Assembly: GCA_039621445.1 (NCBI GenBank)
Contig: CP154954.1
Span: 18,772,642 to 18,836,641 of the forward strand
Source of the DNA: Euglena gracilis
Taxonomy: Eukaryota
DNA: 64,000 nt
Direction of reading: 5' to 3'
This document shows positions 91 through 30,656 of this stretch, one piece after another. How positions within the stretch are numbered: the first letter of the stretch is position 1; each line of letters starts with the position of its first letter. Made by a program: the position numbers and the translations under genes. Below the pieces are notes generated by a model. It saw only the letters and a list, made by a program, of their open reading frames with translations. It was not told the DNA's origin and searched no databases.

Positions 91-150
91 GTACTCCAGT
101 GCCTTGTTCCCGTCCTGGTCCGTGCCGGGTTGCCATTTCCATAACTGCAC
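91..150 (-). CDS. DDB1: DDB1 exon 32 ([20 protein letters not shown]), 3' boundary uncertain
   Basis: AG acceptor; homology to VRLYEW. Confidence 0.78.
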
Positions 151-3100: not shown

Positions 3101-6100
3101 CTTCCAACTTTGCGCCACAATTTTCTTTGAGCCACGAACTTTGTGGCATGAAGCAAAGAGCGAATAAAACAAAAACAAACCCCAAAAAAGATAAAAAGGA
3201 TGGGAGTAAATAAAACACATCTGTCCAAACCTTCAAAGATTAAACTACCAAAAGAAAAATTATCATCCAAAGAAATCTTGTTCGTGTTTCTCCATGATTT
3301 TCGTGAGCTTTCATGATTTTTTGTGTGTTTTGGGAAAACTCCATTTCGTGCTGATTTGTGCTTTGTCGTGTCAAGACAGAGGAAATCCCTGCGACCACCC
3401 AGGGGCAGGGTATTAAATGAGCGGGGAGGAGGTGCGGGTCGGACCCCCTTATACAAAGACTTTCTGGCGCAAAACACCAGAAAAGGTTGGGGGCTTAAGA
3501 AAAAAGTCTAAAAATTTCGTTTTCACAAGCAACCTTGAAAGATCGGCCAAAACATAACCAAAAAAATACCTTCCCCGGCGCAAAGCCCAGGAGAAGTGTT
3601 TTGGTTCCAAGGGAGTCCTGGATCCCCCTCCAGGATTCAAGGGGGGCCTCCTCCCCCACTTAATACCTGCGCGGGGAAGAGGGGGTTGAAAGATCCCTCC
3701 CCCTACCTGCAACAGTATTCCTCCCCAGGGGTGCGCTCAAAAAGATGGCCAGGCCCAACCCTGCTGGCACAGGCACACATTCAAAGGTGTGGTTGTTCAG
3801 GAGCCGCAGGAAATGGACCTCCTCCTCAATGTACAGCCCCTCCAGCATGGCTGTGGAGGAGGGGCAACCATGGTTGGGTGACCCCAGAAATGCGGGTCTG
3901 GCTCTCTGCATTCATTTGGTGGTTGGGGGGCCTTTTCCCCACCCGAACCAAACTGGGACAAAACTGGCTTAGGAATAATTGAAACTGCAAAAAAGAAAGT
4001 AAACTATGCAAAAAAAATGACCTTGTTGATGATTTTTGACCCAAAGTTTGGGGTGGGCAGCACTTTTTACTGGCTGCACACCTGGTGATTTTTCCCAGTC
4101 GAAATTCTCCCAACCTACTTCTGGGCAACGTTTCGGGAAAAGTTCACCTTGAAAATCCCCCCATAATCCCCAAAAAAGTTGGTTGGACAAAAGCCAAACC
4201 TGAGATTGGCAATGCAGACAGGCAGTATTTTTTAACCAATTGCAAAATTATCCTTAAAATTTGCCGTTTTTGAACAAAATTTTGTCAAATATTGGTGCCT
4301 TTGTTTTCTGTCATGACGGTCTTTTTGATACAATGCCTTTGCTGTGGGAAACGAAAGCCCAAGATTTGCCAAGATCGTCTAAAAATTCTGCCTCTGCCCC
4401 CTGGTTCGGAACGTTGTTGTTGGGTGGATTATCAGAATTGTGTAATTTAACAGCAGCCTGCAACTAAAAGCACCCCGGGGGGCCCATAGTTGTACACAGG
4501 GGGGGGGGGGTCGTATGGTAGGACCAGGGTCAGATTTTTCGACTTTTTGGTCCCGCCGCCAGGGAACCACGCGGTTTCCGGGCCACTGGCAGCGGATTCG
4601 GGAGGATGTGGGCTGATTTTTAGGAATAGGGTTAGGGTTAGGATTGGTGCGCCGAAAATCGTCCCTTTTCGGAGGTCCCATTTTGGGAAGACGTTCAGGT
4701 CACCCATCAGTTGAAAAAATGCTGGAATTCAGCCCAATTTCGACCGAACTCAGTCCGAAATGCGGCCCAACTTCTCCTTAAGTTCCGAAAAAGGAGAGTC
4801 CACCAGAGGTGCGGTCGGAACCGTAACCCTGTCCCCAACAATAACCCCGACTTCCGAAAGTAGGACTCGGGTCCCACCATACGACCCCCCCCCACCGCCT
4901 ACAACTATAGGGCCGCAAGTGGCTAGAAAAAGGTGCTGGATAGCTGGCTGGACCTCTCCCCGGGCAAGGGTGAGGTCCGGCTTTAGAAATTCCCTGATTC
5001 AGGTCCATAACTTCCTCACCAGAAATGTGCATGTCAGATTGTCAATCATCCTGTGAAAGAGACATTTCTGGTGAAACCATTTCTCGTAATGAATTACTTG
5101 ACCCAGAAAAAACTTTTTTCAGGGGGGTCAGATTGGGTCCAACAGAGGAGGGGGTCAAGTTTGGCGGTCCAGTTGGGCCAAGGGGGTCAATAGTTGGGGG
5201 GGGGGGTATCACAGGGGGGAGGCATTTTGGGGTGAGGTATTTTGTCCGAGTTTGGCCCATTTTGGAACCTGTTTAAACAAAAAAAAGACACTGCCATGGA
5301 TGGGTGTTAAAACTTGTCGATGGGTGGCAGGATTCAACATGGACCTGCCTTATATGTATTTACTTTTATACTTATATATTATACTTATGTATTTATTCAC
5401 TTTTACATTTTGTTTTTTAAACTTTCACCTCACATGTATTTAAAAGATGTACTTACCTCATGGCCAAAATGACCAGGAACGAAACCCCGGGCCAAACAAA
5501 AATGCCTCAAATCGGCCAAAAATGCAAATTTGAGCACTTTGCAGGCAAAAATGCCAAACCCCCTAGACTTCTTCAACCCATAGCGGCAGAGAGAGGAAAT
5601 TTCGGCTTCCTCGGGGCTGTTCCTGGGACCCGGCAGTACACCTTACACCTTGAAGGGGCAACAGGGAGCAGACCCCAATTGCAGAGCACACCATTGGACC
5701 CCAGCGGGTCAGAGGGGCCGCCAGCCGGCTGGCTGAGCACCGTGCCTTGTGCCGGCACCGTGTAGCCCGGGGACCTGCGGGTGGCGGGGACACGGGGGTG
5801 TCCGACCTGTAATTCCCCCAAATCCGGCGTTGTTGGGAATCCGGAGGTGGAGGAAATGCGGGGAGGGGGGGCGCTGTGCAACCGTCATAACAATTTTAAG
5901 GCGCCTTTAAAACCTTAAAATGCCTGAAAATTTCGGCCTGGCAGAAGTCTCCGATTAACAAAAATGAAATCGCAAAATCTCGGCTTCGGGAAGCAAATGA
6001 TTTCTGGCATCGCTGGAACACTGAGAATCCAGTCAAAACTCAAAAAAATGTGTGGTTTGACTTTTTGATTTTGGACCACGCATAATCAAACACGTCGGTT

Positions 6101-8052
6101 CGATGCCCGGAGAGCCCTTGGACCACCACGCCTTAAAAAGCCTTAAATGGCTTAAAATTTTGAAAAAAAATTGCCTTAAAAAATAATGCCTGCTGTATGG
6201 GAAGGCCTGATGGAGGGGGGGGGGTCGTTCATCACGGGGTGCTACTGATACCTTTCACACATGGAACGGTTCACCCCCTTTCGTTATCCTTGTGTGCAAT
6301 GCAATGGCCGCCATCCTGTCAGATTGGGGTGTACTTGGCAGAGAAGGCATGGTATTCAGCCTCGCCACCTTTGCTATTCCGCCAACTGCATTAGCGCCAA
6401 CGCCATAATCCTTGGAGTGGTGGCCATTCCTGAGCGAGATCCCTTCCCTCCCTTGGAACAGAAGTTGGGCAGGGTTGTGCTGGGGCTCAAGCACCAAAAG
6501 TCAAGCCAGGCATTTCAGCTGTTAGAGGCCGTTTAAAGCCATTTATTTTGTCTTTTTAGGGCGTTCAAGGCCCAGGCCATTTCTGGTCGTTTTGGGCCAT
6601 TTTGGGTCGTTTTGTGGACATTTCAGGGTGGTTTGGATCGTTTCAGGCAATTTTGGGCCATTTTAGGCTGTTTTGGGGTGCTTTAGCTAAGATGCCTGTG
6701 GTGAGGGTTAACCCACCTCAGGAAACCTCAGGAAACAGGTTGTGGCTGGCTGCACACCCAACCCCCTGAAGCCGGTCCCCTCCGGCTTGTGCGACGCCCC
6801 AGTCCACCACCCAACAGGGGGGGGGGGGTGCCGGAATTCCCGCAGAGCGTGGCGCAGAGGAGGGGGGGGGGGGGGCGGCACCGGCTGCTGAGGAGGGCGA
6901 ACGCCTGGGAGCTCTGATGGAAGACGATCTTGCGGGGCTGCTCCCCCAGCCAGGGGTCAAGATAGGGGGTGGGGGGGCACCCCCAACCCCACCCAAACAG
7001 TGGCGAGGTGTGGGTGACCAATTCTCAGCCCGGCATGAAGTGCCGGGCCGAAGGTTTTTGAGCCCCCAAACGACCAAACGTGCCAATTTCGGGACTTTTT
7101 GGGGCAAAAATTTGTCAAAAACGTAAAAAATTTTCGGCGAAAAGTGCTGGAAGGAAATATTTGGCCTTTGTGGGGGGTCCTGGGTATCCGGGTCGATCTG
7201 GGCCCCCCTTGGCAGGCGGGGGGTGGTCTACACCCCCCCTCTGGTCCAGGAGGGGGGGGGACACCCGACCTAAACCCCGAACACCATCCTTATGTCCTTA
7301 TGGCGAACCCTGCCCCCAGCGGCACGGTGCGGATGTGCAGCTTCTGGATGGCGTCGATGGTCCCTGTGACACAAGACAGAGCGCTGACAACAAGCTCTCT
7401 CTGACGACAAACTCGGGCGATGTCACCATAGTTTCACTTAGCGACGACCCCCAGGGGTGGGCACTTTCCCGCCCAAACCCACCCACACCCAACCCTCTCT
7501 TTCAAAAACCCCCCCCCCACACCCGCCTGGGGGGGGGGGGGGGTGCCCACCCACTCACCCACCCGAAACCCACCTGAAATCGGCGAAAACCCCTTGAAAT
7601 TTTTACAGCCAGGCCGACTGACCCATAGTGCACCCCATCCCATCCGTCCCCCGGGGGAGGGGTCCAGCAGCCAACCCACTCTTGAAAACCCCTCGGGGAG
7701 GGTCATGCAAGCGTTACATGAAACCATGGTGTCAACTTCATCGAGTGAATGCCACCTGGGCATCCCAGGATGAAAGGTGACAGAAGTGCACACCTACACC
7801 CCCCCAGATAGTGTCCCCGCCCTCCCCCCTCCTCGAGTAGAACCCCCCCAGTTTTTAACCGTGGACAAGAGAAGGGGAGAAAGTACCCCGAATAGAAGCC
7901 CCCGCTCCTCGGTTTTCAGCCAACGGTCCGAATACAAGCCCCGAGGGACTCCTATTCATAGGGGAGGTTACACGTACACAGAAACATGAAACATCCACAC
8001 ACGGCAAATACAATAAACACCACCCACACCCATCCGCGCGCGCGCGCGCGCG

Positions 8053-8106
<54 letters not shown>

Positions 8107-11100
8107 CACGCACACCCAAGACCAAGTTCTCCTCACAGATCAGAGCCAAGCAGCTGTCATGTTGGAGGTGTTGGCTGTTGAACTGGCACACAAACTGCAC
8201 CTCCTGCAAGAGAATAAGGAGTGAAAGACAGCGATGGACGTCCAGGGCGGTGCTCAACAAAATTAGAAAACCTCTGCTGTCCCAGCACATTCCAACTAAA
8301 TATCCAAATGTTCCCACCCATCAGAAGCCCTTTTGTTTCAAAACGGCTTTTCGGCAAAACGGCAAAAAATGCCGTTTCGCCGTTGGCAAAACGGCGAAAA
8401 AGCCAAAAGGCCGAAATGAAACACATACGGGTGGGAACATTGGAAAAAGGGCAAAAAAAAACTGGCAATTTATTGGCAAAACAAGTGGACGGCGTGTTTC
8501 TCCAGTCCGGCCCTAAGCCGGTTCTTCGGCCAAAGGTCCTCCAGGGCCAGTCCCTGACAGGAAAAAAAAAAACAGCCTGTCCCTTGTAGACCGCCCGCGG
8601 AGAGCTATGTGTGAGGAGAAAAAACTGATCACACCTTCAAATTCACATTGCTAAACAACAGCTTCCGATTGAGAGGCAGGGGGCGATATGAGAAGCATGG
8701 TGTAAATGCGTTATGGCTCCCGTCCAAACGAAGACTCCCAGTTTACCTGCTCAGCAGATTTCTTTAAGAAATGGGGGGAGAAACATGCGTTGCCCCGACT
8801 CCTTCACAAAGGGCATAGAGCATTGAAAAAAAAAATTGTGTTGTTGCATGGTGTTGTTGAAAAACAAACGACAGAGCTTCCAAAGCCACAATGGAGATGG
8901 GAATAAGGCCGATGCAGTAAAGTCAGACAGCATGGCATGTCTTCCACCGCAGTCTTTTCTCCCAACCTGATGGGTGATGGGAACGGTAACGGGGAAAAGA
9001 AAGGGGTGGGTAAGGTATTTTCACAAAAAATTTCTTTCTCAAAAAAGGGCGGTTCACAAAAAATTTCTGGCATTTCTGGCACGCCCGAACCCAACACCCT
9101 GGCCCCTGCCTGGGAGCCCCCCGGGGGTCCAACACAAGACCCCTCCCCGGTTAAAAAAAAAGCCCGATGGGGAAACCCCCAACCCCCTCCACTTGCACAT
9201 GTCAACCCCTGGCCGGAGGAGTAGATGACGGTGGGGCGGTCGCTGGTCACAAACACGTGCTGCTGGTGGGACGACGGCCCAGTACGGCCTCCAGCGCCCG
9301 AGGAGCCGGAGAGGAAGAGGGAGAGCGTGATGGGCTGCGACCCGATGGTGAGCCGCTTCTCCAGGTGCCTGCGAGGGGGTGGCGGCCGGGCGGCTTCTGC
9401 CGTGTGACGCCGCAAACCGCTGCCACCTTGTTATCCAAGTATTGCAACCACGTCCCAAAAAACACTGTCGACAAAAAAGATACTGGTTAACCACCCAAAC
9501 CCCCGAGGAACGCTGCCCAGGCAGTATTATTGAAGGAGCCTGAAAAAATCTTAAAACGTCCCTTAAAATATTTGGCAAAAGTGCCTTAAAATGCCTTGAA
9601 GTGCCTTAAAAAAAAATTGGACTGGCAGAATTTGATCGGACGAAATAACAATAAAATGAAAACGCAAAATCGGCAAAAAACAGCCCAACTCCGGGAATAA
9701 AATGAAATCTGGCATCGCTGTGATGTCTATCCAAACAAAAAAATGTTTTTTTCCGACTTTTTTTGATTTTGGACCACATACAAAGTCAAAAATGTTGGTT
9801 CCATGGTGGGACAGTCCTTGGACCGCACTGGAAAATAGCGCCTTAAAAATGCCTTAAAATGCCTTAAATTTTTGGGGGGAAAATGCTTTTAAAAACAAAG
9901 ATGCTGCCTGGTGACGACCTCCCTGGTGATGATGACGATGAATAATGAACCCCCAAAAGCCCCTCCAGTTCACTCCGATGAAGCAGGGCGGTCCTTGTCC
10001 CGTCCTACCACATTCAATGATAAATAATACCCCCCCAAATAACCTGGCCGGGTTCTTGCTCCTGGCGGGGGCCGAATAACCTGGCGGGGGGAGGGGCAAA
10101 AAAAGATGGTTCCAGTAACTTGGCGGGGTCCTTTTACATTCCTTACAGCGCTGAAAAAAGGGCCCAAATAACCTGGCGGGGGGGGCAGGGCCAAAAGTTG
10201 GTTCCAATCACCTGGCACCCCGCCAGGTTATTGGGGGGGGGGGGTTACTCAGGGAAAATGCATATGTGCCACACTTTGGCAAAACCGGGTCGACTTCAGG
10301 GGGAAACCCTGCTTTCTGGAATCGTTGGACCTTCACCCATCCACCCCCCCCAAAAAATCGGGAAATGCGGTTTTGTCACTTTAATTCACGACCCTGTTCG
10401 ACACCGGACTGGCCATCGGCCGGCCCTTCGGCCAAAGGGCGGCCCTAAAGGAAAAACCATCCCTCATGGACCGCCCTGCAATGAAGGATAAATTAACAAA
10501 ACAAAAACAATTTGACAAACAAATTCAAAAAACCAAATGATTTCCTAAATTATTTGTTTTGTCATAATCAGGGGCGATCACAATCCATGATTGGTGCATC
10601 TGTGATTGGATTTATGTCTTTTGTTATCTGACAAATTATTGATTTTCTTGGATTTTACGCAAATTGGATGGACTCATGATGTTGTTAGGGAACCTGGGTT
10701 CATTGCCTCTGGTACCAATCACCCCCAGGGGACAAAAAAATTTGCTGAAATTTGGAAAGTAGGGGGGGAAACTCAGGAAAGATCTGGGAAAGTGCAAACC
10801 AAATGCAGGCCATGGGCAAAAAAAAAAGTGTGTGAAAGTACGCCGCACGCCCTCTCCCTGCAATATCCCCCTGGCCTCAAATCTCCCAATAATAAGCGTT
10901 TATCATTTTGGGGTCATGTTCAGGCCAGCGACATGCGTCGTGCTCATTCACCGACCCAAGTGCGGTGCATTCAGGGGGCCGAGGGCATACAGCTTGACGG
11001 CCATGTCCTCCTGGGGGACGCTGTACACCAACAGGTTGCCGTCCCCCAGCCCGCACATCAGGTAGTTCAGCCCGTCGAAATTGCAGCACAACACGGACCG

Positions 11101-14100
11101 GGGCAGCACATCTGGAGGACCAGAAACGAGGGCAGTGGGCTCCTTCACGGAAAAGCGGGGAGTCCGCAGGGACCCCAGGGACTTTCAGTCAGTCCAAATG
11201 GAGGTAAGATTCACCCCCCCCCTCCAATGCCTCAAAAAAATTGCTGGAGAGTGCCAACTGACTTCGCCAAATGCTTGCTGATTGCGGATTGCTTCGTTGC
11301 GCTTTGTGCCAGCCCAAAATAAATAAATCACTACCTCCAATGTGCTTGTAAACCTGATGAAGCAGTCAGAGGGGCCAGAAAATTCTTTCAGCAATTTCGG
11401 CTGATTTTGGCTGGATTTTGGGTGGGTGGGTGGTTGACTCCCCGGGGGGGGGGGGGTTGAAAGAAGTGGGGGTGGGTTTGTGCCTGGGAAAAGGTGCCCC
11501 CGGGGAGGTCACTGAGTGAATCTCTGCTCCGGCCGGGCAAAAACCTGACCCATAGCGCAACAAGTCCAACTGTTCCAGCGGTGGTTGTCAGCTTTTTCGC
11601 TTGTGCAAACCATAGAAAAAAATATGGAAAGATGAAAACTCCAAAGACTGAAAACAAACATGTTAACCCATTATGAGAAAAAAAATATACCTGCATAATC
11701 TTTAGCCGGAAAACTTGAAAACAGCCCCCCCCCCCCTATATCCAACAAACACTTCAACGAGAAAAAATTTTTTGCAGTCTGAACAATTCGTGAAACACAG
11801 GTTGGTGGTGGGATTTTCAGGGATCCTCACATTTCCATGCTGGCCGAGGCCAAAATGTATCCGTGATTTTCCGTGATTCTCCGTGATTTTCCGTGATTTT
11901 CCGTGAATTTCCTGTTTCCGGAAAAGGTCAAAAGCCACATTCCTTCACGATACACCCTTGTCAAGAGTTCTGAAAACGCTTTCTTCAAAACGGCCGCTGA
12001 ATCAGACACAAAAGCAATGACGTTGCTTGGGACAATCCCCATGTTGCCCCGGCCTCGACAACAGCTGAAGCCACTTCCGATGCCCAACCCCCAAATTTGG
12101 CCCTTTGCAATCCAGCTGAACGCATGCCTCAACGTAGATCTTCCTTTGCATACCCACCAAAATGTTTATGATTGCATGCCCAGAACTGTCAGTCCATTCA
12201 TCAGTTCCTATCCACACCTGTATACGAAAATAAAAGGCGCACAGGAGGGGAAAAAACAACATTTTGTCCTTGAATTTTTTTTTGATTGCCCCCAAATGGG
12301 TTGCCAAAATCCTGTCAGCGGACCGCTATAGCGATTGACCCTTCTGGATGCAGCCTGGGCGGAAAGGTGGAAGGTCATTTCTGAATAGGCAAAAACCCAC
12401 ACACCCTCAACTTGTGTGTATTTCTGGAGAACCTCTAACACCTCTAATGCTTTCGTGGTCCAATTTTGTGACAGAATGGAGGAAAGCGGCCCACAAAACC
12501 ATCTGTGATTGTCTAAGTGAGGATTTGCTTCTTCACCGACTCCCAAAAATCCAACTGCTTCAGGGGTGTCTTGGCTAGGAAGAAAATCCATGATTATGTA
12601 AGGACAAACACACGTTCGGCCACAGCAACAAATGAATTTTCTACATTTTCACCTTTGCAACAGAAGGGCCCGGTTCAAACATTCAAGCATTCAAAAAGAA
12701 GGCCCAAAAAAATTTTCCGAATCCCCGCCTCATCCGTGAATTTCCGTGATTTTACGAGATTTCCGTGAAAATGGCCTTCTGCCCATTTCCGTGATCCTCC
12801 ATGAATTTCCGTGAATTTCCTTTTCAGGAAGTGTGAGGATCCCTGAATTTTCCTTCGAAGCAGTTCTTAGACAGGCATGCACTCCACCCACCAGTGGCCA
12901 ATGGCAGCTTGTACACCAAATCCAGGTTCGGGAGGGACAGGATGTTCAGGCTGACGTCCACCCATAGGCCCTGTGGGGTGTGATATTGTCGAAAGGGGGT
13001 TCCTTTGGGGGCCTGATCAGCGCTGGGGGCTGTTTCGCCAAACAGTCCTTGGCGAATGGGTTTTCCAAAAGCAGATGTTGCACTGGTTAAAGCCGGGCGA
13101 TGGTGCCCCTGTGGGAGGGGGGGCAGTGAATCTATTCACATCAATCCGACCTGCATGATCCAACCCGCTCAGAGGACGGGTTTGACAGAAGAAGACATTG
13201 AATAGAGCAGTTTTTGAGAAGTATATGCCCTCCCCTCGGGGTCGACCCACCCACTCGCCAAAAAAATGCCCAATTGAAATAACCTTGCAACACTGGACAA
13301 AACCCACCCACTCCCAACCTCCCAGGGTGGGGAGGGTCAATGCATCTTTGACAAGGGGCAGGGATTAGGGGGACCCCCCCCCTACCTCCCCCCGGGATCA
13401 ATTTCGAGGTTCCACAGAGATATTCAGCGCTTCATGCCAAAAAGGGCGGAAAACCTCAACTTGACTCCCGGGGAGAGAGGGGGAGGGCAGACTCACCCAC
13501 CCAACCCCTCCCCCTCCCTGCCTGGGGGTCCAACCTTTTGAAAAATCCCTGACAAGGGTGCTGCTCAGCAGACACACCGCCAACGTTACGGGACGCATGT
13601 AAAAGTTTCGTATTGCAAAATGTTTGATGTTGTTGACGTTGCAGACACAGACACGAACAGCACACCAACGCACAGTAATTAGCATGGGACTCCTGGTCCA
13701 AGGGGTGGATGTCGATGCAAGCAATCTCATGGGGAAGCTTGGTTTGCCTGTAAATGGAAGCAATATGTCCTTGCCCTGCAATTGCGGCGACTCAGGGGGT
13801 TATTTGCACATGACTTCTGCAAAACAGGGACTTCAACCCAGAATGCATCTTTACAAATATTAAAAACAAACATGGGGTGATGGTGCTTGGGGGGGCAAAC
13901 AACTCAACAGGTGTCCTGGTGCAGATGGCATTCCTCATTTCAAACAGTGATTACCACCAGCAACTGTGCCCTCAGAGATGGAGAAAGCAAAAAATCGCTG
14001 CTGTAAGAGCCCAAAAACAACAGGTGTCGGGCACCTGCTTCTTTACAACCCAGAAGGGGACGGGGCTGCACTGTGCAATGGGATGCCTGTCCACAGTGCC

Positions 14101-17100
14101 CCCCACAGTGGGGTCAGCTTGGGTCTCAAGATCCAATCCCGTCAAATTGCTCTCGAAAATGGCCATTTTCGGGCCGCCAAGCCAGGGGGGGGGGGGAATG
14201 CAACTTGGCCCTTCAAATTATGCAAAAAAATGCAAAAAAAACCGCAAAAAGATGCAGCTTGCATAAAACCCCTGAGAAAAGGCTGGAATACAACAGAGTT
14301 TTTGCCTAAAATCTGTAAAGATGTGAGAATGCCGGTGTGCCTGTCAATAATTCACAAAGAAGACCTCCTGGAAGACACTTCAAGCACTGAAGCTTTCAAA
14401 ATCAACATGAATCGTTCAGTCTAAGCAAATCGTCCCTCCAGGTCACCATTGAACATCAATAGCGGCGGCACGGCACGTTTCATTGCATAACGTGGAACGC
14501 AACTCGGTATCAACACCCCCAGCCAGGGCGGTCCTTAAGGAAATAAAAAAAAACACCAGCACACTCAGTGAAAAATACACAGGAAAATGGGCAAGAAATT
14601 TTGGCATTTACAGCGAGAACAGGTCGACATCAGGAAAAAAATTGGTTCCTGGCACCCTTGGACCATTGTCCATCCACCCAAATCATCAAAAACTGTGTTT
14701 TTCGACTGTTTAATTTTTGCCCCCCGTTCAAATCCCACTCTGGCCCTTGGTCGGCCCTTTGGCCGACCAAGCCGTTCGTTCAGCCTTGCTGGGTGCAGGG
14801 CGGTCCTTAAGGGACCGGAAAGCTTCTTTTTTATTTCCTTAAGGACCACCCCCCATTCATTCATTCGGCCAGGAATGAATGAATGGGGGGCGGTCCTTAA
14901 GGAAATGAAAAAAAGCTTTCCTGTCCTTTCCTGTCCCTTAAGGACCTCCCTGCACCCAGCAAGGCTGAACGAACATGGCGGCACACCCTTCTGCACAACA
15001 TTTGGATTCCACACATGAAGAAGTGTGTGCTTTCAACGTCAGCAGAGGTCTTTGAAATGACAAAAACAAGCTCGGAAAACATTCACTCCTCTGCAAAGCT
15101 CCCTTTTAATAGGGTGAAAGTATCAAAGACCCCAGGCAACTGCAGAGGGACCAGAGACAAAACATGACATGGCGACTACAAAAAAATTTATAGGGCAAAA
15201 TATTCTATGCAAAAAAATGCAAAAAAATGCAAATTTCGGAAAAACCTGATTATGCAAAAAAAATGCAAGTTATGCAAGTTGCATATTCACAGCACCACCC
15301 TCCCCAAAACCTGTTCCCTTGGGGTCATTGGGGCAGGTGCGGGGGAGGAGGCCCATACTTCTGCAGCACCAGCTGCTGCCCCTGTAGCTCCAGATAGAAC
15401 AGGGCGCCGCTGGTGCCCGCCAGCAGCAGCTGGCCCCCCAGGGCCAGGGGCTTTTTCAGGACCCGGGGGGAGGAGGGGGGGTCCGGACCCACCCACCCAC
15501 CCCCCCCCGGGGGGAGGCCCCCCCGGGGGGGGGGGGGGGGGCTGGGGGAGACCCACTTTTGGGGGTCGATTTTGGGTCTAAATAAAATTTTCGGCAAGAA
15601 GCACCAAAAAAAAAACCTGCCTCCAGAGTACCCACCCAACCCAACCCCCCACCCGTGGGGGCTTGGCCGGGACCCACCCACCCCCCCCCCCGGGTCACGA
15701 AACTTAAAAAATACGGATCCACCCCCTGGGAGGGGGGGTCAGGGGGCTCGGGGATCCACTTTGGGGGGCCAATTTTGGGGTCCAATTTTGATCGGCGCTT
15801 CGTGCCAAAAATCAAAAAACCTGTTTTCAGCAGAGTACCCACTTGCCCCAACCCCCCTCCCCCCTCCCCCGGGGGGCAGACCCACCCACCCACCCCCTCC
15901 CCAGGGTCACCAAACTGTAAAAAAAAAAAAAATCTCTGCCCAGGGCGTTGCAGCTCGCCAGGTTGATGGTGCACCCGCTTGGGCTGCTGGCCTGGGGGTT
16001 CGCTCCGGCCCAGGGCGGGAAGTGATTGGAATGGTTGCTCCGAAACACGAATGGGGACTCCAACTGCCAAATTATGGCCATTTTTTTCGACCGTTTTCCC
16101 TGTGGATTCTCATTGAGTGTGCTGGTTTGGAAGTTTTTTTTTGTTTTGCCTGAGGACCGCGGGACCCCCCCCCCGGGGGGTGGCAAAATGAAGCCTGGTG
16201 CTGGGGCAGGAATACTTTTCACATTTAGGGTCACCCTGCATTTAGCCAGAGGTGTGTGGGTCCAAGCACCCCAAATACGGGTCGGAAAAGAAAGTGAAGA
16301 CCGTGGCCCCTCCACCCAAAATGTCAGGGAATGGTTTTTTGATTTTCGACCCTGTTCGATGTCCGGAACGGCCGTTGCCGGCACGCCCCTGAGGCCCAAG
16401 GGCGGTCCTTGACAAAAAAAAGCATATCATCTTTTATGGACCCCCTGCTTGCACTATGGGGTGCCTGCCAGCAGCGTGCACACCCCTGCGGGGAGGGGGG
16501 GGGGCGGCGGATTTGGGTTCCCAGCCCCAGCCGACCCAGCCAATTTGAAAATGGCCATTTTCATGTCCCCGGCGCCGAAGGTGGGCGTGCTTTAGCACTG
16601 CCCACCCCAAAACCCAATCCCCAGGCTGAAAATGCCCTTCCCCCCTGCCCTGCCCATAGCACTCCCCATTCAACGTTCCATCAAATTTCACAGAAAAAAT
16701 GGCGAAAAATTCCAAATTTTTCGACGAGAATAGGTCAACATCACAACGTTTTTTTTAAAAAAACCACATTTCTCACCTTTTTTTGAATGTCTACCCCGTT
16801 CAAACTGAATTATAAAAAAAATCCTGTCCCTTGCGGACAAAGATTTCGGAAAAATTTTCGGAGAGGTGAAAAACTGAAATAAAAATAATAATAAAAAAAG
16901 CTCTCACATGGGGAAAAAAAACGCTTCCAACAAACCTTGAGGTGGTGGCCCTAGTCAGGCAAGTCAGGCAACTGTCAGATTGTTATCTGCAAAGAAAGGG
17001 AACCCCCGGTCCCATTCTTGGACCAAGCCTTTCGTTTGGCATGAGATCAGCCGGACACCCCGAGGGGTGACCTGAGTCAGAGGCATGGGCAGGGATGGTC

Positions 17101-20100
17101 TGACACATGTTCTCTGGGGGGCACCTCTCAAATGAAAGATAGGCGAGCACAAAAAAAATTAAATTGGAATTAAAACTTGAATTCATGGTGCGGATCAACT
17201 TTGTTTTAAAACAATGTCTTCTTCGACAAGTTGATGAGACATAAAAAGTCTTCAACTTCCACAAAACAGCCGAGTCCTTGGGGGATCCAGGTTCACATCC
17301 ACCCACCACTGCAAGGGTTACCTGAATTGTTTGTTTTCACTGGGCATCTACAAAAAAATCAAATGATGGTCTTGAGGCTGCATAAGAAGGATTGCAATTC
17401 CTGACAAATATACAGGGGGGGGCAAAAACTGCACACGGGCAGGTCAAAAACTGCACTGCAAAAAACTGCAAAAAACTGCAAAAAACTGCAAAAAACTGCA
17501 CATCAACAAAAAATAACAATAAACAAGCTGAAATGGTGTGCATATGCAAAACAACGTAAATTGTGACCACATGAGAACGCCCCAATTCACTTAACTTTTG
17601 CACAGCTTTGGAGCTGATGACAATAAAAATGAAAGCAATCACGGAGCCAAACAGCTAAATATGGAAAAAATGCACATACCCATATGCAGAAAGGTTCTAT
17701 GCTTTTAATTCTCGTATGGGATGTTCAGTTTTGGAACTTTCGGTCCATCACCTGGTGAACTTCACCCATGTCGCGATGCAAAAAATCTACAAAACTAAAA
17801 AAAATTACAACAACCATCACAAACTTTGAATACTGTCTTTAGGGGATTGCCAAATGGTCTGGGAATTTCTTGCAAATAAGAATGACTTCTTTGAAGCATT
17901 TGGCTTGTGTGATATTTGGCCAAAATGCTTGGGACAAGGCCCAATCTTCTACAGGAGCTCGTGCTCCTTTGCGTCTCCACGAATCTCGCAAACTCCAACT
18001 TCAACCAAAATTTGCACAAAAAAAAAACAGTTTTTGGATTTAGTCCCCGAATCCCAAAATAATAAGTTGAATCTGCTCAGGAGTGCGCAAATGACGATTG
18101 CCAATATAAGAATTGTGACATCTGTCACCACATGCACAAGTTGGAGATGGAGCGCTTTTGGTTGGGGAAAAATTGTGGCGTTGTCACCGAAACAATCTGT
18201 TTTTTGGAATGGTGGCTATAACAATTTCTGTTGTGTCGAGAGGCAAGGCAGTTGGCAAAACAGTTGGGGGCAAGACAACTGGTGGGATTACTGTAGACAA
18301 CACAACTCATGAAGATATTTTTTGAGAGAGACTTTTTCTTGAGAAACACCCTTCAAACAATATAATCCAGCGTAACAAGGCGCAGAGCACCAAGAAATGA
18401 GCACCTCAGGTTTCCTCAAAACTGAAATCAAAAAAAAACTGCAAAAAACTGCACGTGTGCAGTTTTTTCAGGAAAAAAGCTGCAAAAAACTGCAAAAAAC
18501 TGCAAAAAACTGCAAAAAACCCAAAATGTGAAAACTGCAAAAAACTGCAAAAACTGCACGGTGCATATTTTGCCCCTCCCTGCAAATATAGTTCACCAAA
18601 TGGAAAAATATGTCAATGACCCCGCCTGGTGCAGAAATTTTTTCAAGGAAGTGCAAAAAAGAAGGGGTGAGCTGACCCAAAAATTGAACCAAATTCTGAG
18701 AATCCCTGCAAAGCAATTTGTTATGATGCAATCTGAAAACTTTGGTTTGCATTAGATCTGTCACTTCTTTTTTTGGGATCTTGAACTTGCACCAAATATT
18801 TTTCACCCAAATCATATCTCTTGTATTTCTTCTCCATTTATGCTTGCTTTAATCTGCATTGAAACGACAAATAACCAAAAAAATTTCCCATATTCAAATT
18901 ATTTCCCCAAAATTTTCTCAATCTCTCCCATGAGCATGCAAACTTGACTCCTTTGTAAATAGGAAACCAAACAAATAATAACATAATTTTTTATATAACA
19001 CTAATGATAACACATCATTTCAGGAGGGCGGCGGGTGGAAAAAAAATATCATTTGAAATTTTGGGGGGAAATCTATAAATAACAACAAAAGCGCATTGTT
19101 CGAACAGGGAATTTCTTCATTTCTAGCGCAAATCTTCTTGAAATTGGCGCACCAGGTCAGAATTTGCAAACTCCAGTTGTAACAAAAGTTTGCCACAGTA
19201 AGCCAGCGGCAACGCCGCCAAGTCACCTGCACAAAGAAATGCGCCAGACTCTTGTTTTCGGCGGAGGCGATGTTGGTGCACAGCAGGGTGGGAAGGTCCG
19301 CCGCCAAGCCACCCAGCCTGGCTTCCTGACGGGCGAATATGCATATGCGAAAGCTTGCATCACTGCCAGCATTCTTGAAGGCCAGGTTCCTTTGCCCTTC
19401 CTTGCCCTCCACCTTTTCCTTACTGCGCAAAAATGCAGAAATTGAACTGATGCCGTCCTCCTCGTTCCTTCCCGACACAAGACTCCAGACATTTCTCCCC
19501 GAGACATTTCTCAAACCAACGGTTTCTAAGAGATGATACAACACAACAAAGGTTAGATTTCGAGGTGCAGCCCCCTGTGGGGCTCAGCCAGAGGAGGTAC
19601 CTTCCAAAGCTTCAAAGTAGTAATGTGCCACACTCAACGGTGCAATGCTGGACATTCAAACAGGAGCACCATATAAACCATCTTTTAAACAATAATACGG
19701 AGGAACTAATTCACAATCAAAAATCCCCTTTTGCTTGAATGGGGAAAACAAAAAATGCGAGAAAACTATTAATCTCCCTCTTACACACCCTTCCAGTGAA
19801 AGAACAATGAAACAAAAATTTTGGGCTGGAGGGAAAATGTGAATGTCATTGATAAATGCCACTGATGATAAAGGCCAAAAACCACACACAGGGGCATTTT
19901 GAACCATTTCAGGGGTCAGGATTTGACTTGATTAACAAATCCTTGAGGATTAGCAAATGATGGTGCAGAGATCCAACACAATGACAGCCACATTAAATAC
20001 CTTGTCATACAATTGTTAACCTACAGATGATTGTTTGACATTGATAAAACCTGCAATCAATGAGAAGAGGGTCACCCTATCCACAACCCTGCTGTCAATT

Positions 20101-23100
20101 ACTGGGCTTGAAAGCTCAGAGTCCATTGGGCTGTTGATGCCATTGGTGGGGGAGACAGGCAAAGACAGAGACCTCGATGGATTCCTCGTCCTCCATGCTG
20201 AGCACCTTGGTCTCGTTGATGAAGGAGAGCACCAGGCTTCTTTTTAAGACCCCCAGGGGAGGGGGGTCCCCCCTCCCACCCAGCCTGGTGCGGGACCCCC
20301 GGGGGGGACCCAAAAAATCGGGCTGTTTGCGAGCATTTCCCAAAAAAATTTCGGTGTTCGCGCGGAAACCCAAACCCTTGCCTCCGGCCCCGGACCCCCA
20401 ACCCCCCCCCGGGGGGGAGGTCTTCTGACTTAAAAACAAGCCTGGAGAGCACCAAATACTTCGCGTTCAGCACTGCCTCCCCCTCCGTCATGCTGTCTGG
20501 GGAGGGTTCCAGCAGGGACCACATTCCTGTGCAGGAGAGTTTTGGCAGGGAGAACTTTTAGCTTCCGACCTGCTCCACGCAAACCTGGTGGTTTTAAGCC
20601 GGGCTGAGAGCCCAGTTGGAGGCCAGGAAATGTGATCATGATCAAGTCGCTTCCCTGACCGCTTTGGTGGTGGCACACCAATTTGGGGGGAGGGCATTAT
20701 GAACAGCCCTGCCCCACCCCCCGCTCAGCCCTGGAAAAAATGGCTTGCTGGAAACACACTGCTGGTTGACCCCCCATCCTGGGGTCCTGCGGTGGTCCGT
20801 CACTGCTGTGGGGTGCAGCACGTAACCCTTCTGGCGGCCCTGGACCCCAGCAACCTCGCACCAGCAAACAACCACGGACCACCGCCTTGGAAGGTCAAGG
20901 AACCCCGGAGGGACCAGGCCACCGCCGGCGGGCGCGGCACACCCTTCACCCCCGTGAGCTGCAGCGAGGCCAGCTCGTTGATGCCGATGCCGTTGCGGAT
21001 GACGCGGAGGCTGCCGTCCTTGAACGCCCCGCTGCAGGTCACCACTTGCCCCTGCCGGGCATAGGCACAGGCCAGGGGGCATGGCGTCGGGAGCAGCAGT
21101 GGGGCTAGAGAAGCACTTCTCTGGTTCGGGTGTTCTTTAAGACCGGGGAGGGGGGAGGGGGGTCCCCATTGGCATTATCTATTTAAGGTCTAAAAACTTT
21201 TTTGGGCAAAAAGTGCCTGATGATGCCTTAAATGCCATAAAATGTTTAAAATTTTGGGTTGGCAGAACTTTCTCGAACCGAGCAAAAATGGAAGATGCAA
21301 AATATCGGCAAAAACATAGCCCAACTCTGGGGGGAAAAAATGATTTCTGGCATCGCTGGGACATTGGTCCAACCAAAAGTCAAAAAAACGTTGGTTTGAT
21401 TCCCAGGCAGCCCTTTGAACGCTGTGGAAAACAGCATCTAAAAAAGCCTCAAAAAATGCCTTAAACTGCCTCGAAATTTTGAAAAAAATACACCTGGTCC
21501 CCCACCCACCCAACAGAGGTAGGGGGTCCAGCGAACCCATCCACTTTGCTCCTTCCTCTCCCCCCCTCCCGGGGTCCGACAGTCCGAAACTTCCGTGCGC
21601 TGCCAAATCAGGCGTTGTTTGAGTCGTTGTTGGGAGGGGGGGGGTGTTCAGCCAGGCACCATTTGAGCCCCACCGTGTGGAGCGTGTGTTTTGGTCGTTC
21701 CCCTGCCACATATTGCGTGGTGTGTCCAACTTTCCTGTCGCTGTTTCACTGGTTGTTTTTTTTTAGAGACTGCCAGGTTCCAGGCCCTCCCCCGGGTGGG
21801 ATTGAACGAGGGGTGACCGAAAGAGGCCCATCCAGCACTGAAGGCGCAGGAGAATTCAGGTGAAAATGGCCAAACTGGATTGATTCTTGGTCATTTTGAC
21901 GCTCCTCCTAAGCATGGGGGGGGGGGTGCCTGCCGAGTCGCGGGCCAAAAAATGCCCAAAAATGGGTTTTCTGGGCTTCCGGAAGTGCCTTGGCCGACTG
22001 CCCAGGCACTTCTGGTTGTGTGCCCCCCTCCTGGGGGGGAGGAAGTCGGATGCCCAGGCAGGCACCCCCTTAGTTGCACTGAGGCTTCTTGTCTGTTAAT
22101 GGCCGGCGCTAACTTCGCTTCTGGCCCAGTTTGTGTGGTGAGGCAGGCACCCCCAGAGCATACAATTGCTTACCGACCCCCGGGGGGGGGAGGGGGGGGT
22201 CACTCCACTTTTTTAAAAACCAGTCAGTCACTCATTTTCAAAAAACCAGCCAGTCACTACCCCCCCCCCCGGGAGGGGGGGGTCGGCCACTCAGAAAAAC
22301 GGCCACTTTCCAGTCACTTTAGGCCATTTTAGGCCAAAAAAAATTTTCCGGCGCCTTCGGCGCCGGGGTCACTCAAGCCACTTTTGCCCACTCCTTGCCG
22401 ACCCCCCCCCGGGGGGGGAGGGGTCCGGGCCCAAAACCAGTCAGTCACTTTGAAAAAACCAGTCACCCACCCCCCGGGGGGGGGGGGGGTGGGACAGTGC
22501 TTAAGCAATTGTCTGCCCCGGAGGCAGGCACCACCCCCGGGGGTGGGGTCTGCCTCACGTTAAAATTGAGCCTGGCGCCCAAAGCCAAACAGAGGCTGTC
22601 TTATTTGCAGAACCTTCCACTGAAGCTGCGCTTTCAAACAGAACCCCTTTTGGAACTGATGGCGAACTGTCTGAATGCATCAGATGTCCTTTGATGCCCT
22701 AAAGAGCACAGACGATGCGACCAGGTGTCTTTTCGTGATCCAAAGGGGGATTCCATATGGGGGTCAGGCTGAATTTGACCAACCCTGGGGATGGGGATCT
22801 TGGGGTGTGAGTGGGCGGGTGGGTACTTTTCCCAAGGTTTGGCCATGTGCCCTACCCCCCCCCCCTAGAGGGTTGGATCTGGGTGCCGTGGAGGGCCTTC
22901 CGGGCGGGCATCCCCCACCCCCAGATTGGGGTCGGCCTTGCCCAACAATATCAGCCAGATAAGGCCAGCTTGGACAGGTCTGTCAACAACAACAAGGTTT
23001 TAAAAAAACCCATCTGACGAAAGTTAATGCAAAATCCACAGTTGGTTGCAAAAATGACCGTTTTCTGGCAAAGATGGGTCGACATCAGAAAAAAGCGGTG

Positions 23101-26100
23101 TTTGGCGTCCTTGAGGCATCGCCCATCCATCCAAAACATCAAAAAAATGCGGTTTTCGACTTTCGATGTTCCCATCCAAGCCCCAGACCGGCCGTTGCCC
23201 TGAGGCCTGAGGGCTGTCCTCAAGGGGCGGTCCTCACTACTGATTTTTCTAAAGCGCATTAAACAACCTTGAAAAAACCCAAAGTGTTTTGGCCAGAATG
23301 CCTTGCAGTGCATTGGTGCCCTCCCCCTTGACCGGATGGAGGGCAGTCCGGGACAATGTTGAACCATGGCTGCCAGAAGTCATGTTTTTTTCCGCAGTTG
23401 GCGTGTTTTTGCCGAGATTTTGCAGTTGCATTTTCGCTCGTAAAGAGGAAATCGAGCCAAAAGTTTTGTAATGCCATTTTGATCAAAATGAACCATTCTT
23501 GGCCTGGTGTGAAGCGCTGGGCCAAAGATTCCCCAACATCGACCCAAAATGCATTGATAGGCTCTTTTGGGCAAAAAAAAAGCCGAAATTGCCAAAAATT
23601 TTCAATGCAAAATGTCGGAAAGAAAACCGATTTGATTTGTGCCCAATTTTGACCGATTTGGGGGATCTCGGGTGCCCCCCCCCCCAAATTAACCCACTGT
23701 TGGTCTGAAACAACGGTCCAGACTCCCTCCCGAGGCGAATGCCAGAAAATGACTATTTTTAAACAAATTTCTTCCATTGGGCCCTCTGTTATTTCCGATG
23801 GGGGCGGCAACCTGCACTGGGGTTCGAATTGAGGAGGGCGGCATACCCAACGATGGTGCCGTTCCCTTTTGACCACAGGGAGAGTCTGGAAACCCCCCCA
23901 GTTCAGCGAGAACAGGTCGACATCAGGAAAAAAGTTGATTCCTGGCACCTTTGGGTCATCGTCCATCCGCCCAAATCATCAAAAACTGTGTTTTTCGACT
24001 GTTTAATTTTCGCCCCCGTTCAAGTCCCACTCTGGCCCTTGGTCGGCCCTTTGGCCGAAAGGGGGGGCGGTCCTTAAGGAAATTAAAAAAAAAACTTTCC
24101 TGTCCCTTAAGGACCGCCCTCTGGTGTGTGCGCGCGCGCGTGTGCGCGTGTGTGCGCGCACGCGTGTGTGTGGGTGTGGTGTGGGTGTGTGTGTGCACTC
24201 GCAGCGCACGGGGATGTGGAAAAGATCACTCAGAGTGGCTTGCACACCTGGCCCTGCCGGTCCAGATCCACAACCACAAAATCAACAATGGGGCCGAGGT
24301 TGGTGAAGCTCTCCAGGGTTTCAATGGCACTCCCACCCCCTGAACAGCAAAAGGGGACCCTCAATGCGCGCCTTTCTGGGCGAAAACAAAAATTGAACTA
24401 AGCCAGGGGTGGCCCCCGAAGTTGGCCTTTTCGGCCTTTTGCACATGGCCCAAAACTCTGAACATCCAAACTTGATGATTGGCCCCCTAGCCTGAACTTC
24501 AATCATCAGATGCACATTCTCCTAAAAACAACCTCTGGCAGGGCAGGTTTGAGCCCCCCCCCCCTCACAGTTGGTCAAATTCAGCCTGGCCTATTGGCAT
24601 TGGAAAGCATTGATACCTCCCCACCAAAATGGAGCATCTCTGGTGAAAAAAAAGAACGTTGTATCCACCCAAAACTTGTCCTCTTTTTCCCAGGGCGGTC
24701 CTTAAGCAAAAAAAAAAAAATCCCGTCCCGGCACAGCCGAGAAATTTTTTTGAAAATCCATGACCGAAAAGTGGCCGTATTTTGCCCGAAACGGGTCAAC
24801 TTCGGGAAAAAAAGTGATTCCTGGCACTTTTGGAACATCGCCCATCCGCCCATAGCGTCAAAAAATGCGTTTTTCGACTTTTTGGTTTTCGACCCCCGTT
24901 CAAGTCCCGGTCGATCCTTGGTCGGGGGGGCGGTCCTTAAGGGGCGGTCCTTAACGAAAAAAAAAAAAAAAAACTTCCCGTCCCTTATGGACCGCCCTGC
25001 TTTTTCCTGAATGACATCAGCGTCTGGCTCCAACATCAGGGGGGGGGGCTTCACATTTGGGTGGCAAAACCAAACCCCCTGGGGGGGCTGAATATTTGGG
25101 GGGGGGATACCCCCTGGTGGGAGGGGCAGTGTCAGCCACCCCGGAATCCAAGGAAAATTTGACACAAACGTGAAAAAGGGCAAAAAATGTTTCTGTCGCC
25201 TTCGACGCCGGATCACTTTGGTGGTCTTTTGCCGACCCCCCCCCTCCCCACAGACATCTTGAGGCTATAATCACAATTGTCTGACCAACCAAATCTCGAA
25301 AACTCTTTTTTAACTTTCACGTCGAAAATAGAAAAGTTCGATGCCTGGGCCACTCTTGGACCATCCTTGGAGACTAGTGGTTTAAAAAACAAGTCACTTT
25401 GAATAAACCTCAAGCAGTGACAAGGTTTCACTCCGTTGTTCAGAAATCTGAAAAATAATTTCTTCAAAAAATTAGCTTGGAGGCCACCTGAAATGATTTT
25501 GGGATCGATCTGTGACTTCGAAAATCGTGCCCAAACGATGACCCGGTCATGGAATTTGGCTGCTGAATTTATTATTTGGAGGATTCAGGGAATTCCTTAA
25601 GACAGCGGGAGGGGTCAGGGAGAAAAATTCTTTCCAATTTTGGAACATGTTAAAACTGTGAATTTGGTACAAGAGCAATTCTGACCCTGAATGCATCCTG
25701 ACCCTGAAAAAAAGTTGGGACGTCAAAATATGCATCATGACCCTGAAAAAAAGTTGGGAGGTCAAAATATGCAAAATATGATTAAAATACACATTATCCC
25801 AAATTTTTACAACGTAAAAGCTGAAAACTATGCAAATGAGAAATTGCAATAATCTAGATAATGCAAAAGAAATGCAAATGATGCAACTTGCATAACCCCC
25901 CAGGCATTATTGTTTAAAGCGCCTGAAAAAACCTTAAAATGGGCCTCACAAATTTTGGCCAAAATGACTTAAATTAGAACTTTGGACCGGGAGACTCCAA
26001 CCGAGAGGAGCTGTCTGCCCCTTGGACCTAAAGGCGGTCCTCAAGGGGCGGTCCGGAAGGGAAAAAAAAACTTCCCATCCCTCATGGACTGCCTGGCAAA

Positions 26101-30584: not shown

Positions 30585-30656
<72 letters not shown>

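Follow-up and report, generated by a model that had tools for sequence, protein, structure and literature searches.

Transposon insertions with 8-bp target-site duplications as putative nonconventional introns in the DDB1 gene of Euglena gracilis

The origin and mechanism of the nonconventional introns of euglenids have been an open question since the 1990s. Members of the class leave the RNA as circles, once the conventional introns have been removed. These introns have no GT-AG borders; they carry CAG at positions +4 to +6 and CTG at -8 to -6, their ends can pair, direct repeats occur at their junctions, the spacers next to the stem measure 3 and 5 nt, and a MITE-like origin has been proposed for them (passages of PMC3935182; PMC4770533; PMC12501133). 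The splice code is given as 5'-N3CDG-/-CH'GN5-6|R, with experimentally defined spacers (strictly 3 nt at the donor, and 5 nt with a tolerance of +1 at the acceptor); it fits 61.2% of the nonconventional introns of E. agilis and not the rest (passages of PMC12501133). The genome-wide consensus for E. gracilis has CCAGG at +3 to +7 and CCTG at -9 to -6 (passages of PMC11170887), and a newly gained intron in E. agilis gapC is bordered by 8-nt direct repeats (passages of PMC4770533). A MITE origin, repeats resembling target-site duplications and the placing of the cuts 3 nt before CAG and 5 nt after CTG have all been described in earlier work; as a 2013 paper noted, transposable elements had not yet been identified in euglenids, and the MITE-like origin has so far been a hypothesis drawn from inverted repeats.

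Transposons that act as introns are known from other systems. Introners of Micromonas and Aureococcus (Huff 2016, cited in a passage of PMC11170887) and the elements of dinoflagellates and Amoebophrya (PMC11282704) are DNA transposons in which the duplication and the terminal sequence together lead to exact removal from RNA, and an exon insertion becomes an intron at once; they are spliceosomal, one splice site comes from the duplication, and in Amoebophrya the duplications are 3-5 nt long. Maize Ds is reported to be removed through cryptic GT-AG sites (Giroux 1994, cited in a passage of PMC3935182). In E. gracilis itself, Merlin elements make 8-bp duplications, but their inverted repeats end in 5'-GG and their transposase is of the DDE_Tnp_IS1595 type (passages of PMC8101967).

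Here we describe three elements (E1, E2 and E3) that interrupt coding exons of the DNA-repair gene DDB1 in a window of 64,000 nucleotides of E. gracilis DNA. They share the border, spacer and direct-repeat features of nonconventional introns listed above; unlike in the earlier descriptions, we find repeated families that also lie outside exons, flanking repeats of 8 bp, and an hAT transposase remnant whose element has the same terminal pentanucleotide. The locus gives the MITE hypothesis concrete evidence, with the same CAG...CTG families occurring as nonconventional introns in exons and as plain repeats in ordinary introns. We consider it likely that E1-E3 are hAT MITEs that inserted into exons with 8-bp duplications and are removed by nonconventional splicing with spacers of 3 and 5 nt.

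Three insertions in the coding exons of DDB1

DDB1 leaves the window at its start, at residue 943 of 1205. Over these 943 codons and 32 exons it is identical to the transcript-derived protein P0001 (eukprot EG_transcript_838), a match at the protein level that a spliced MITE-bearing allele and an insertion-free allele would produce alike. GT-AG borders are possible for 25 of the 31 introns and impossible for six, three of which are E1, E2 and E3. A preliminary description of this DNA, made from the letters alone, had claimed that the three start with CAG, end with CTG and sit between perfect 8-bp repeats, and direct reading of the sequence confirms this (Table 1). It had also claimed that taking out the element plus 8 nt restores the protein in frame; an in-silico splice of this kind gives P0001 exactly, and no other removal works. 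Across the three sites P0001 has the two peptides, of 20 and 10 residues, that the description had given. Inserts with their duplication measure 370, 502 and 220 nt, none divisible by 3, so that retaining any of them would disrupt the reading frame.

The use of GT-AG sites at these junctions, named beforehand as something that would speak against the claim, has no register in which it could occur: the registers that yield the same mRNA (9, 9 and 12 for E1, E2 and E3) include neither GT-AG nor GC-AG. Nor do the ends of E1-E3 build GT-AG sites together with the duplication, as in spliceosomal introners. Junction repeats do not exceed 5 nt at the 25 GT-AG introns, versus 8, 8 and 11 nt at E1, E2 and E3, the repeat of E3 reaching 11 nt through chance adjacency. 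All three show the motif and spacers of the N3-CDG ... CH'G-N5-6|R code, E3 having a pyrimidine at the purine-preferred site, and the CAGG termini of the DDB1 elements agree with the genome-wide consensus for E. gracilis.

Terminal inverted repeats, previously reported for all three, are clear in E3 (16/17; CAGGCTT(C/G)TTTTTAAG) and weak in E2 (9/12) and E1 (8/12). The elements are transposon insertions, as had been said, but the word intact somewhat overstates the condition of E1 and E2, given their weak inverted repeats and internal deletion or duplications; the duplication within E2 spans ~205 bp.

Among the six non-GT-AG introns, four match the published code, namely E1-E3 and the intron after residue 705 (8671..9214), and two do not, a limit to the interpretation in the preliminary description. 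The fourth has an inverted repeat (CAGGGGTTGACATG / CAGGGGGCGATATG) and is probably an older insertion. Its flanking 8-mers agree at just 4/8 positions, and as a decayed 8-bp case it is suggestive and was left out of the support. The introns at 15989-17011 and 35195-36293 were considered as further cases and rejected, as they lack the complementary code and have repeats of 0-1 nt.

Table 1. Positions in the window of DDB1, its putative nonconventional introns and the transposon-derived elements
Feature	Position	Strand	Details
Euglena gracilis DDB1	88..53433	-	32 exon blocks, exact P0001 match; 31 introns resolved
Family A MITE, inverted repeat CAGGGCGGTCCTTAAG	2083..2399		8-bp duplication GGGATGCC, in GT-AG intron
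E1 target-site duplication, left copy	6943..6950		CCCCCAGC, direct sequence reading
E1, 362-bp MITE (family B), nonconventional intron	6951..7312	-	register GGG-CAG...CTG-GCTGG|G
E1 target-site duplication, right copy	7313..7320		CCCCCAGC, direct sequence reading
Fourth code-fitting nonconventional intron (after residue 705)	8671..9214	-	GGC-CAG...CTG-CCTCTC|A, N6
Family A MITE	9984..10478		flanks CGATGAAG / CAATGAAG, 7/8 match
1028-bp non-autonomous hAT derivative	11818..12845		perfect 14-bp inverted repeat CAGGGATCCTCACA, starts CAGGG, encloses decayed transposase remnant
Decayed hAT (DUF659-type) transposase fragment	11932..12487	-	stops and frameshift; motifs DEWTD, FVSDSA
Family A MITE	14524..14952		flanks CCCCCAGC / CACCCAGC, 7/8 match
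E2 target-site duplication, left copy	15437..15444		CCCAGGGC, direct sequence reading
E2, 494-bp element, nonconventional intron	15445..15938	-	register GGG-CAG...CTG-GCCCT|G
E2 target-site duplication, right copy	15939..15946		CCCAGGGC, direct sequence reading
1170-bp element, inverted repeat CAGGG(G/A)GGGGCAAA	17413..18582		8-bp duplication CAAATATA, in GT-AG intron
E3 target-site duplication, left copy	20225..20232		GAGAGCAC, direct sequence reading
E3, 212-bp MITE, nonconventional intron	20233..20444	-	register CTC-CAG...CTG-GTGCT|C
E3 target-site duplication, right copy	20445..20452		GAGAGCAC, direct sequence reading
Family A MITE	24691..24999		8-bp duplication CTTTTTCC, in GT-AG intron
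451-bp element, inverted repeat CAGGCATTATT	25901..26351		perfect 9-bp (not 8-bp) flanking repeat ATAACCCCC
Family B sister of E1	49310..50577		perfect 18-bp inverted repeat, 8-bp duplication CCCAGGGG, inside 14.6-kb GT-AG intron

Related families and the length of the flanking repeat

E1 has a sister copy at 49310-50577, itself holding a nested insertion at 49637-50461; the two are 77% identical, are flanked by different 8-bp duplications, and their homology at the right end stops exactly at CTG. Family A is present in at least five paired copies in the window. The terminus CAGGG is common to families A, B and D, to E1, to the left end of E2 and to the element around the transposase remnant, while E3 and the element at 25901 begin with CAGGC. 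No second copy of E2 was found within the window, and at 29494, 34942 and 36681, where inverted repeats resemble that of E3, neither clean pairs nor duplications turned up. A search of metagenomes with the 16-nt inverted repeat of family A matched 103 loci, none of them with similarity beyond the 16-mer, and these are therefore chance matches.

The length of the flanking repeat was determined by scanning the whole window for elements that run from CAG to CTG, have inverted repeats matching at 8/12 or more positions and are directly abutted by a repeat of k bp. Seven matches were obtained for k=8, two for k=9, one for k=6 and none for k=7 or k=10-12; in 20 shuffles the scan at k=8 returned 0 or 1 each (mean 0.25). 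Four of the seven lie inside ordinary GT-AG introns. When inverted repeats were sought on their own (at least 12/14, giving 31 pairs), the flanking 8-mers were perfect repeats in five pairs and matched at 7/8 in two, and a perfect repeat was seen once in register 9 and never in registers 5, 6, 7, 10 or 11. Taken together, the window holds seven perfect 8-bp duplications and two at 7/8, and apart from a single 9-bp case no other length is overrepresented. Scanning for inverted repeats with flanking repeats was uninformative when no constraints were set, the output being dominated by homopolymers and microsatellites.

Superfamily of the elements

Inside a DDB1 intron lies a decayed transposase remnant (11932..12487), and the element enclosing it has no clean duplication (2/8; 5/6 in a 6-nt register). 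Homologs of the ORF at 12487-11932 were found with E values of 2e-16 to 6e-14, two of three having DUF659, a domain assigned to hAT transposases (passages of PMC3985635; PMC5751038). The homolog P0005 has DUF659 above the gathering score; ten long relatives of P0005, missed by a word-based search and recovered by an exhaustive one, all have DUF659 at E<=0.001, and five have Dimer_Tnp_hAT above gathering. No ORF of the window itself reaches the DUF659 cut-off (17.4 vs 34.7 bits). Five ORFs from 11391-12945 were scanned; they include neither an intact transposase nor a dimerisation domain, and the only transposase remnant among them is hAT-type.

Termini of hAT elements follow the motif YARNG, and their target consensus is nTnnnnAn. 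With hAT MITEs and Ds-type elements, those of the window share the 8-bp duplication, short inverted repeats (beginning with CAGGG in part of them), non-coding sequence, a size of 0.2-1.3 kb and the presence of several copies; the decayed transposase appears related as well, through DUF659 and through relatives that have Dimer_Tnp_hAT. They differ in that the window holds no autonomous element with inverted repeats matching those of the MITEs, and in that its nine duplications depart from the nTnnnnAn pattern. We suggest that the superfamily of E1-E3 is most likely hAT, on the grounds of how long the duplications are, of the terminal CAGGG and of a remnant with a different inverted repeat. The preliminary description had called the elements hAT-like and had proposed a search for an hAT transposase ORF bounded by the same inverted repeats; the name is made likely by these features, whereas the ORF turned out to be a decayed remnant bounded by CAGGG, the one part of its inverted repeat that it has in common with the MITE families.

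This difference between the inverted repeats, like the missing target consensus, would also fit MITEs of another superfamily (Merlin, P or an undescribed one) with 8-bp duplications, spliced as proposed. Merlin families with such duplications occur in E. gracilis, and the one 9-bp repeat in the window falls within their range of 8-9 bp (passages of PMC8101967). We nonetheless hold another superfamily to be unlikely: the conserved terminal 5'-GG described for Merlin in the same passages is replaced here by CAG/CTG ends with the repeat directly abutting, and the sole remnant among the five scanned ORFs is hAT-type and CAGGG-bounded. It is far less probable still that repair of double-strand breaks while the introns were gained, and not a transposase, left the 8-nt repeats behind, the interpretation given for the repeat at the gapC intron (passages of PMC4770533). 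The same CAG...CTG inverted repeat with 8 bp recurs at copies of repeated families in ordinary introns, the 8-mer differing each time; repeats of 6, 7, 10 or 11 bp are not in excess, and a fixed length is not expected of repair microhomologies.

Proposed removal from RNA and the 3 + 5 spacing

We propose that non-autonomous DNA transposons (MITEs) would have entered the coding exons of DDB1, each duplicating an 8-bp target, and that a non-spliceosomal machinery would recognise their pairable CAG...CTG ends in the pre-mRNA and make its cuts 3 nt ahead of CAG and 5 nt past CTG. As 3 and 5 nt add up to one 8-bp duplication, the RNA would lose precisely the element and one copy, and the frame from before the insertion would return; E1-E3 would not destroy DDB1 because nonconventional splicing would remove them from the pre-mRNA. 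The sum itself, put forward in the preliminary description, is sound, since the spacer rule is experimental and published (passages of PMC12501133), and that description was also right that a transposon origin had been suggested earlier, the MITE idea being in the prior literature. The proposed pathway differs from the cryptic GT-AG sites of maize Ds, and it differs from introners in having no GT-AG borders, in cuts measured from the terminal stem and in an 8-bp duplication. Neither the name hAT nor a link between 8 bp and 3+5 appears in the searched sections and passages of Milanowski et al. 2014, 2016 and Nomura et al. 2025; the explicit link to an 8-bp hAT duplication is likewise absent from the texts searched, and looking in the literature for hAT in combination with Euglena or with nonconventional introns gave nothing relevant.

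No splicing would take place at these sites if the DDB1 of the window were an allele or paralogue that was disrupted recently and is not expressed, with the transcript coming from an insertion-free copy; the transcript is linked to the locus at the protein level, and the inserts are frame-breaking if retained. We believe this to be quite improbable, as all 943 codons in 32 exons agree with P0001, the 25 GT-AG introns are intact, three independent disabling insertions without further decay would be unlikely, and each of E1, E2 and E3 fits an experimentally defined code (passages of PMC12501133). In addition, the duplication at the fourth code-fitting intron has decayed, which points to long-term tolerance of such insertions. 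The agreement of 3+5 with 8 could also reflect survival of spliced hAT-like MITEs, the spacing having arisen for other reasons, so that only those transposons whose duplications chanced to be 8 bp long could have lasted in exons. Such a filter is possible, if doubtful; in its favour, two of the six non-GT-AG introns of DDB1 lack both the code and a repeat of 8 bp, the code leaves part of the E. agilis introns unexplained, and the 3' spacer tolerates 6 nt (passages of PMC12501133). The contrary reading, to which we give about an even chance of being right, is that euglenid nonconventional splicing is an RNA-level system of precise excision fitted to hAT geometry, in which the sum of the two spacers would be tied, causally or through evolution, to the length of the duplication. 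Both predict the same sequences, and the difference between them is the direction of causality alone.

If nonconventional splicing is fitted to the 8-bp duplication in this way, any hAT-type MITE would be neutral from the moment it entered an exon, whatever its orientation, which would explain how nonconventional introns reach 72% of E. agilis introns; the excised RNA circle would hold exactly one copy of the duplication at its junction. Were the relation 3+5=8 to hold genome-wide, it would put a name to the transposon superfamily, explain the measured spacer rule and reduce the question of origin to simple tests.

The predicted minimum-free-energy folds of the three RNAs differ in their ends. 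In E2, CAG is not paired with CTG; the ends of E1 are paired in a register shifted from the canonical CAG/CTG, and those of E3 are paired from CAG/CTG outward (z = -2.55).

The DDB1 gene and its non-GT-AG introns

The window consists of nuclear DNA from Euglena gracilis or from a strain almost identical to it. A search with one exon translation retrieved eukprot EG_transcript_838 (P0001, the transcript-derived protein used here as splice reference), which is 1205 aa long and carries DDB1-type Pfam domains; its residues 1-943 match exactly 32 minus-strand exon blocks running from 53433 down to 88. When each donor and acceptor register that reproduces P0001 was enumerated for all 31 introns, GT-AG borders were permitted in 25 and excluded in six (see table). 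Junction repeats at the 25 GT-AG introns measure 0-5 nt. The gene, whose product is only 1205 aa long, occupies upwards of 53 kb; one GT-AG intron, 37460-52077, spans 14.6 kb and is dense with repeats.

The preliminary description had placed three CAG...CTG elements, E1, E2 and E3, between 8-bp repeats, and direct reading confirms this observation: each begins with CAG and ends with CTG, with a copy of CCCCCAGC (E1), CCCAGGGC (E2) or GAGAGCAC (E3) on either side. Removing the element plus 8 nt, as had been proposed, does yield the P0001 sequence across all three sites. It is from this match at the protein level that we read the splicing of E1-E3, and their removal from the RNA of this allele is predicted. 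The terminal inverted repeats ascribed to all three are strong in E3 (16/17), but weak in E1 (8/12) and E2 (9/12). The E3 inverted-repeat motif occurs four times in the window, where 0.10 occurrences would be expected; E2 has no second copy there. Two tandem internal units of ~205 bp each (15478-15923) are 71% identical, and E2 has thus been enlarged through internal duplication; it is the weakest transposon case among the three.

Non-GT-AG introns of DDB1, and further CAG...CTG elements abutted by perfect 8-bp repeats
Feature	Position	Strand	Junction repeat (nt)	Borders	First exon base	Fit to splice code
Intron	35195-36293	minus	1			
Intron, E3 element	20233-20444	minus	11	CTC-CAG..CTG-GTGCT	C	motif and spacers fit; exon starts with pyrimidine
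Intron	15989-17011	minus	0			
Intron, E2 element	15445-15938	minus	8	GGG-CAG..CTG-GCCCT	G	fits
Intron after residue 705	8672-9215	minus	1	GGC-CAG..CTG-CCTCTC	A	fits, with N6
Intron, E1 element	6951-7312	minus	8	GGG-CAG..CTG-GCTGG	G	fits
Element within GT-AG intron	2083-2399					
Element within GT-AG intron	17413-18582					
Element within GT-AG intron	24691-24999					
Element within GT-AG intron	49310-50577					

Eight-base-pair duplications and element families

The window was scanned for elements that start with CAG, end with CTG, carry an inverted repeat of at least 8/12 and abut a perfect direct repeat of k bp. For elements of up to 4000 bp, matches numbered 63 at k = 3, 21 at k = 4, 15 at k = 5, one at k = 6, none at k = 7, seven at k = 8, two at k = 9 and none at k = 10-12; raising the limit to 6000 bp gave 18 at k = 5 and three at k = 6, with k = 7, 8, 9 and 10 the same. 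Each of 20 shuffles produced 0 or 1 match at k = 8 (mean 0.25). Three of the seven matches at k = 8 form nonconventional introns (E1-E3), and the other four lie within GT-AG introns. A stricter scan, seeded on inverted repeats of at least 12/14, returned 31 pairs, with 8-mer flanks perfect in five and 7/8 identical in two (9984-10478 and 14524-14952); among the 31, registers 5, 6, 7, 10 and 11 held no perfect flanking repeat and register 9 held one (25901-26351). The remaining pairs are mostly inner segments of longer palindromes.

The elements group into families. Family A, with the inverted repeat CAGGGCGGTCCTTAAG, is represented in the window by five or more paired copies and by solo ends; family B comprises E1 and 49310-50577, which share 77% identity over 262 bp. 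In this sister of E1 the inverted repeat is perfect over 18 bp and the duplication, CCCAGGGG, differs from that of E1, and at the right end the homology of the two terminates exactly at CTG. Taken together, the repeat scans and the family copies with 8-bp duplications establish that E1-E3 and their relatives are mobile-element insertions carrying 8-bp target-site duplications. CCCAG or CTGGG occurs in 4/9 duplications examined (which include the sites at 6943, 15437, 49302 and 14516) as compared to 1.45% of window 8-mers (binomial P ~5e-6), suggesting that the elements may prefer targets resembling their own CAGGG/CCCTG end.

Some copies show further rearrangement. The family B copy contains, at 49626-50472, a nested insertion of ~825 bp (49637-50461) that lies between copies of an 11-bp direct repeat, CCCCTGGCAGG, and shows no obvious inverted repeats. 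In or beside the family A copy at 14524-14952 there is an inverted duplication (14781-14967) that includes flank, agccttgctgggtg plus repeat versus repeat plus cacccagcaaggct. The CAGGCATTATT-type element at 25901-26351 is flanked by a perfect repeat of 9 bp, not 8 bp (ATAACCCCC), and ends related to its repeat lie at 4219, 6192, 53531 and 53820.

Superfamily of the elements

The classical mark of hAT transposons is an 8-bp duplication combined with a short inverted repeat that begins with CAGGG. Duplications of 8 bp are also produced by E. gracilis Merlin elements, whose inverted repeats terminate in 5'-GG (PMC8101967), in contrast to the CAG/CTG termini here. The preliminary description had suggested looking for an hAT transposase ORF bounded by the same TIRs as the MITEs (non-autonomous DNA transposons). 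In the window, a decayed ORF with stops and a frameshift (12487-11932, minus strand) is enclosed by a 1028-bp element (11818-12845, within GT-AG intron 11115-12894) with a perfect 14-bp inverted repeat, CAGGGATCCTCACA, but only CAGGG is common to this repeat and the MITE families. The element holds no intact transposase, and its flanks lack a clean 8-bp duplication (2/8 identical). Short tandem repeats of the CACGGAAAAT type flank the transposase remnant internally.

The best ORF of the remnant matches Pfam DUF659 weakly (E 0.0038, 17.4 bits, cut-off 34.7), and its homologs score E 2e-16 to 6e-14. One of these, P0005, lies above the DUF659 gathering score and has 129 relatives by exhaustive search. 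In the 10 scanned out of 19 relatives of at least 428 residues, DUF659 was found at E<=0.001 in all ten (above gathering in four) and Dimer_Tnp_hAT above gathering in five. DUF659 has been attributed to hAT transposases (PMC3985635; PMC5751038), and the atlas neighbours belong to clusters described as DUF659, ZBED1 RNase-like and hAT-like RNase-H. These similarities support reading the remnant as a probable decayed fragment of a DUF659-type hAT transposase, which would give the hAT assignment independent backing.

Splice code and duplication length

Using knock-ins, Nomura et al. (2025) defined the code 5'-N3CDG-/-CH'GN5-6, followed by R as first exon base; the 3-nt donor spacer tolerates no length change, while the 5-nt acceptor spacer tolerates +1 (PMC12501133). 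All six non-GT-AG DDB1 introns were compared with this code. At a CAG...CTG element with an 8-bp duplication, splicing by it would excise N3, the element and N5, which equals the element plus one duplication copy; the 3+5=8 arithmetic of the preliminary description is thus right, the published spacers summing to the duplication length. The CAGG...CCTG termini in the window are also those of the genome-wide E. gracilis consensus, CCAGG at +3..+7 and CCTG at -9..-6 (PMC11170887). In predicted RNA folds the two ends of E3 pair, and the canonical register is absent from E1 and E2, which in such G+C-rich RNA is weak evidence either way.

The interpretation of the E1, E2 and E3 introns as hAT-like MITEs, with 3+5=8, is supported, and they belong among the euglenid nonconventional introns of MITE origin. 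That such an origin had been suggested before is correct: it was first proposed in 2013/14 (PMC3935182) and restated since (PMC6221363; PMC12621601; discussion of PMC12501133), and a 2024 review treats CAG/CTG as a TIR and labels the repeats at the junctions 'TSD-like' (PMC11282704). Milanowski et al. (2016) described a gapC intron newly acquired by E. agilis with direct repeats of eight nucleotides, which they interpreted as traces of double-strand-break repair (PMC4770533). In a term search of the main texts of these intron papers neither hAT nor a duplication of 8 bp came up, and a search of one literature library pairing hAT with nonconventional introns or Euglena found nothing relevant. 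Nomura et al. set 'slidable' introns aside, and an 8-nt peak may already be present in the sliding-distance distributions of PMC12501133 (supplementary figure S3A and figure 1B). What seems to be added here is the presence of the same families within and outside exons, the sharp mode at 8 bp, the hAT remnant with the same terminus (CAGGG only) and the equality of 3+5 with the duplication length.

The introns after residues 172 and 517 (the pair 35195-36293 and 15989-17011) behave differently from the code: the former fits only formally, its middle bases being non-complementary, and the latter offers no register, so that neither shows the complementary N3-CDG/CHG-N5-6 arrangement, and the junction repeats are 0-1 nt. 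Intron 15989-17011 carries an inverted repeat, CCGGGGGTTC / CCTGGGGGTTC, placed 2 nt from each border.
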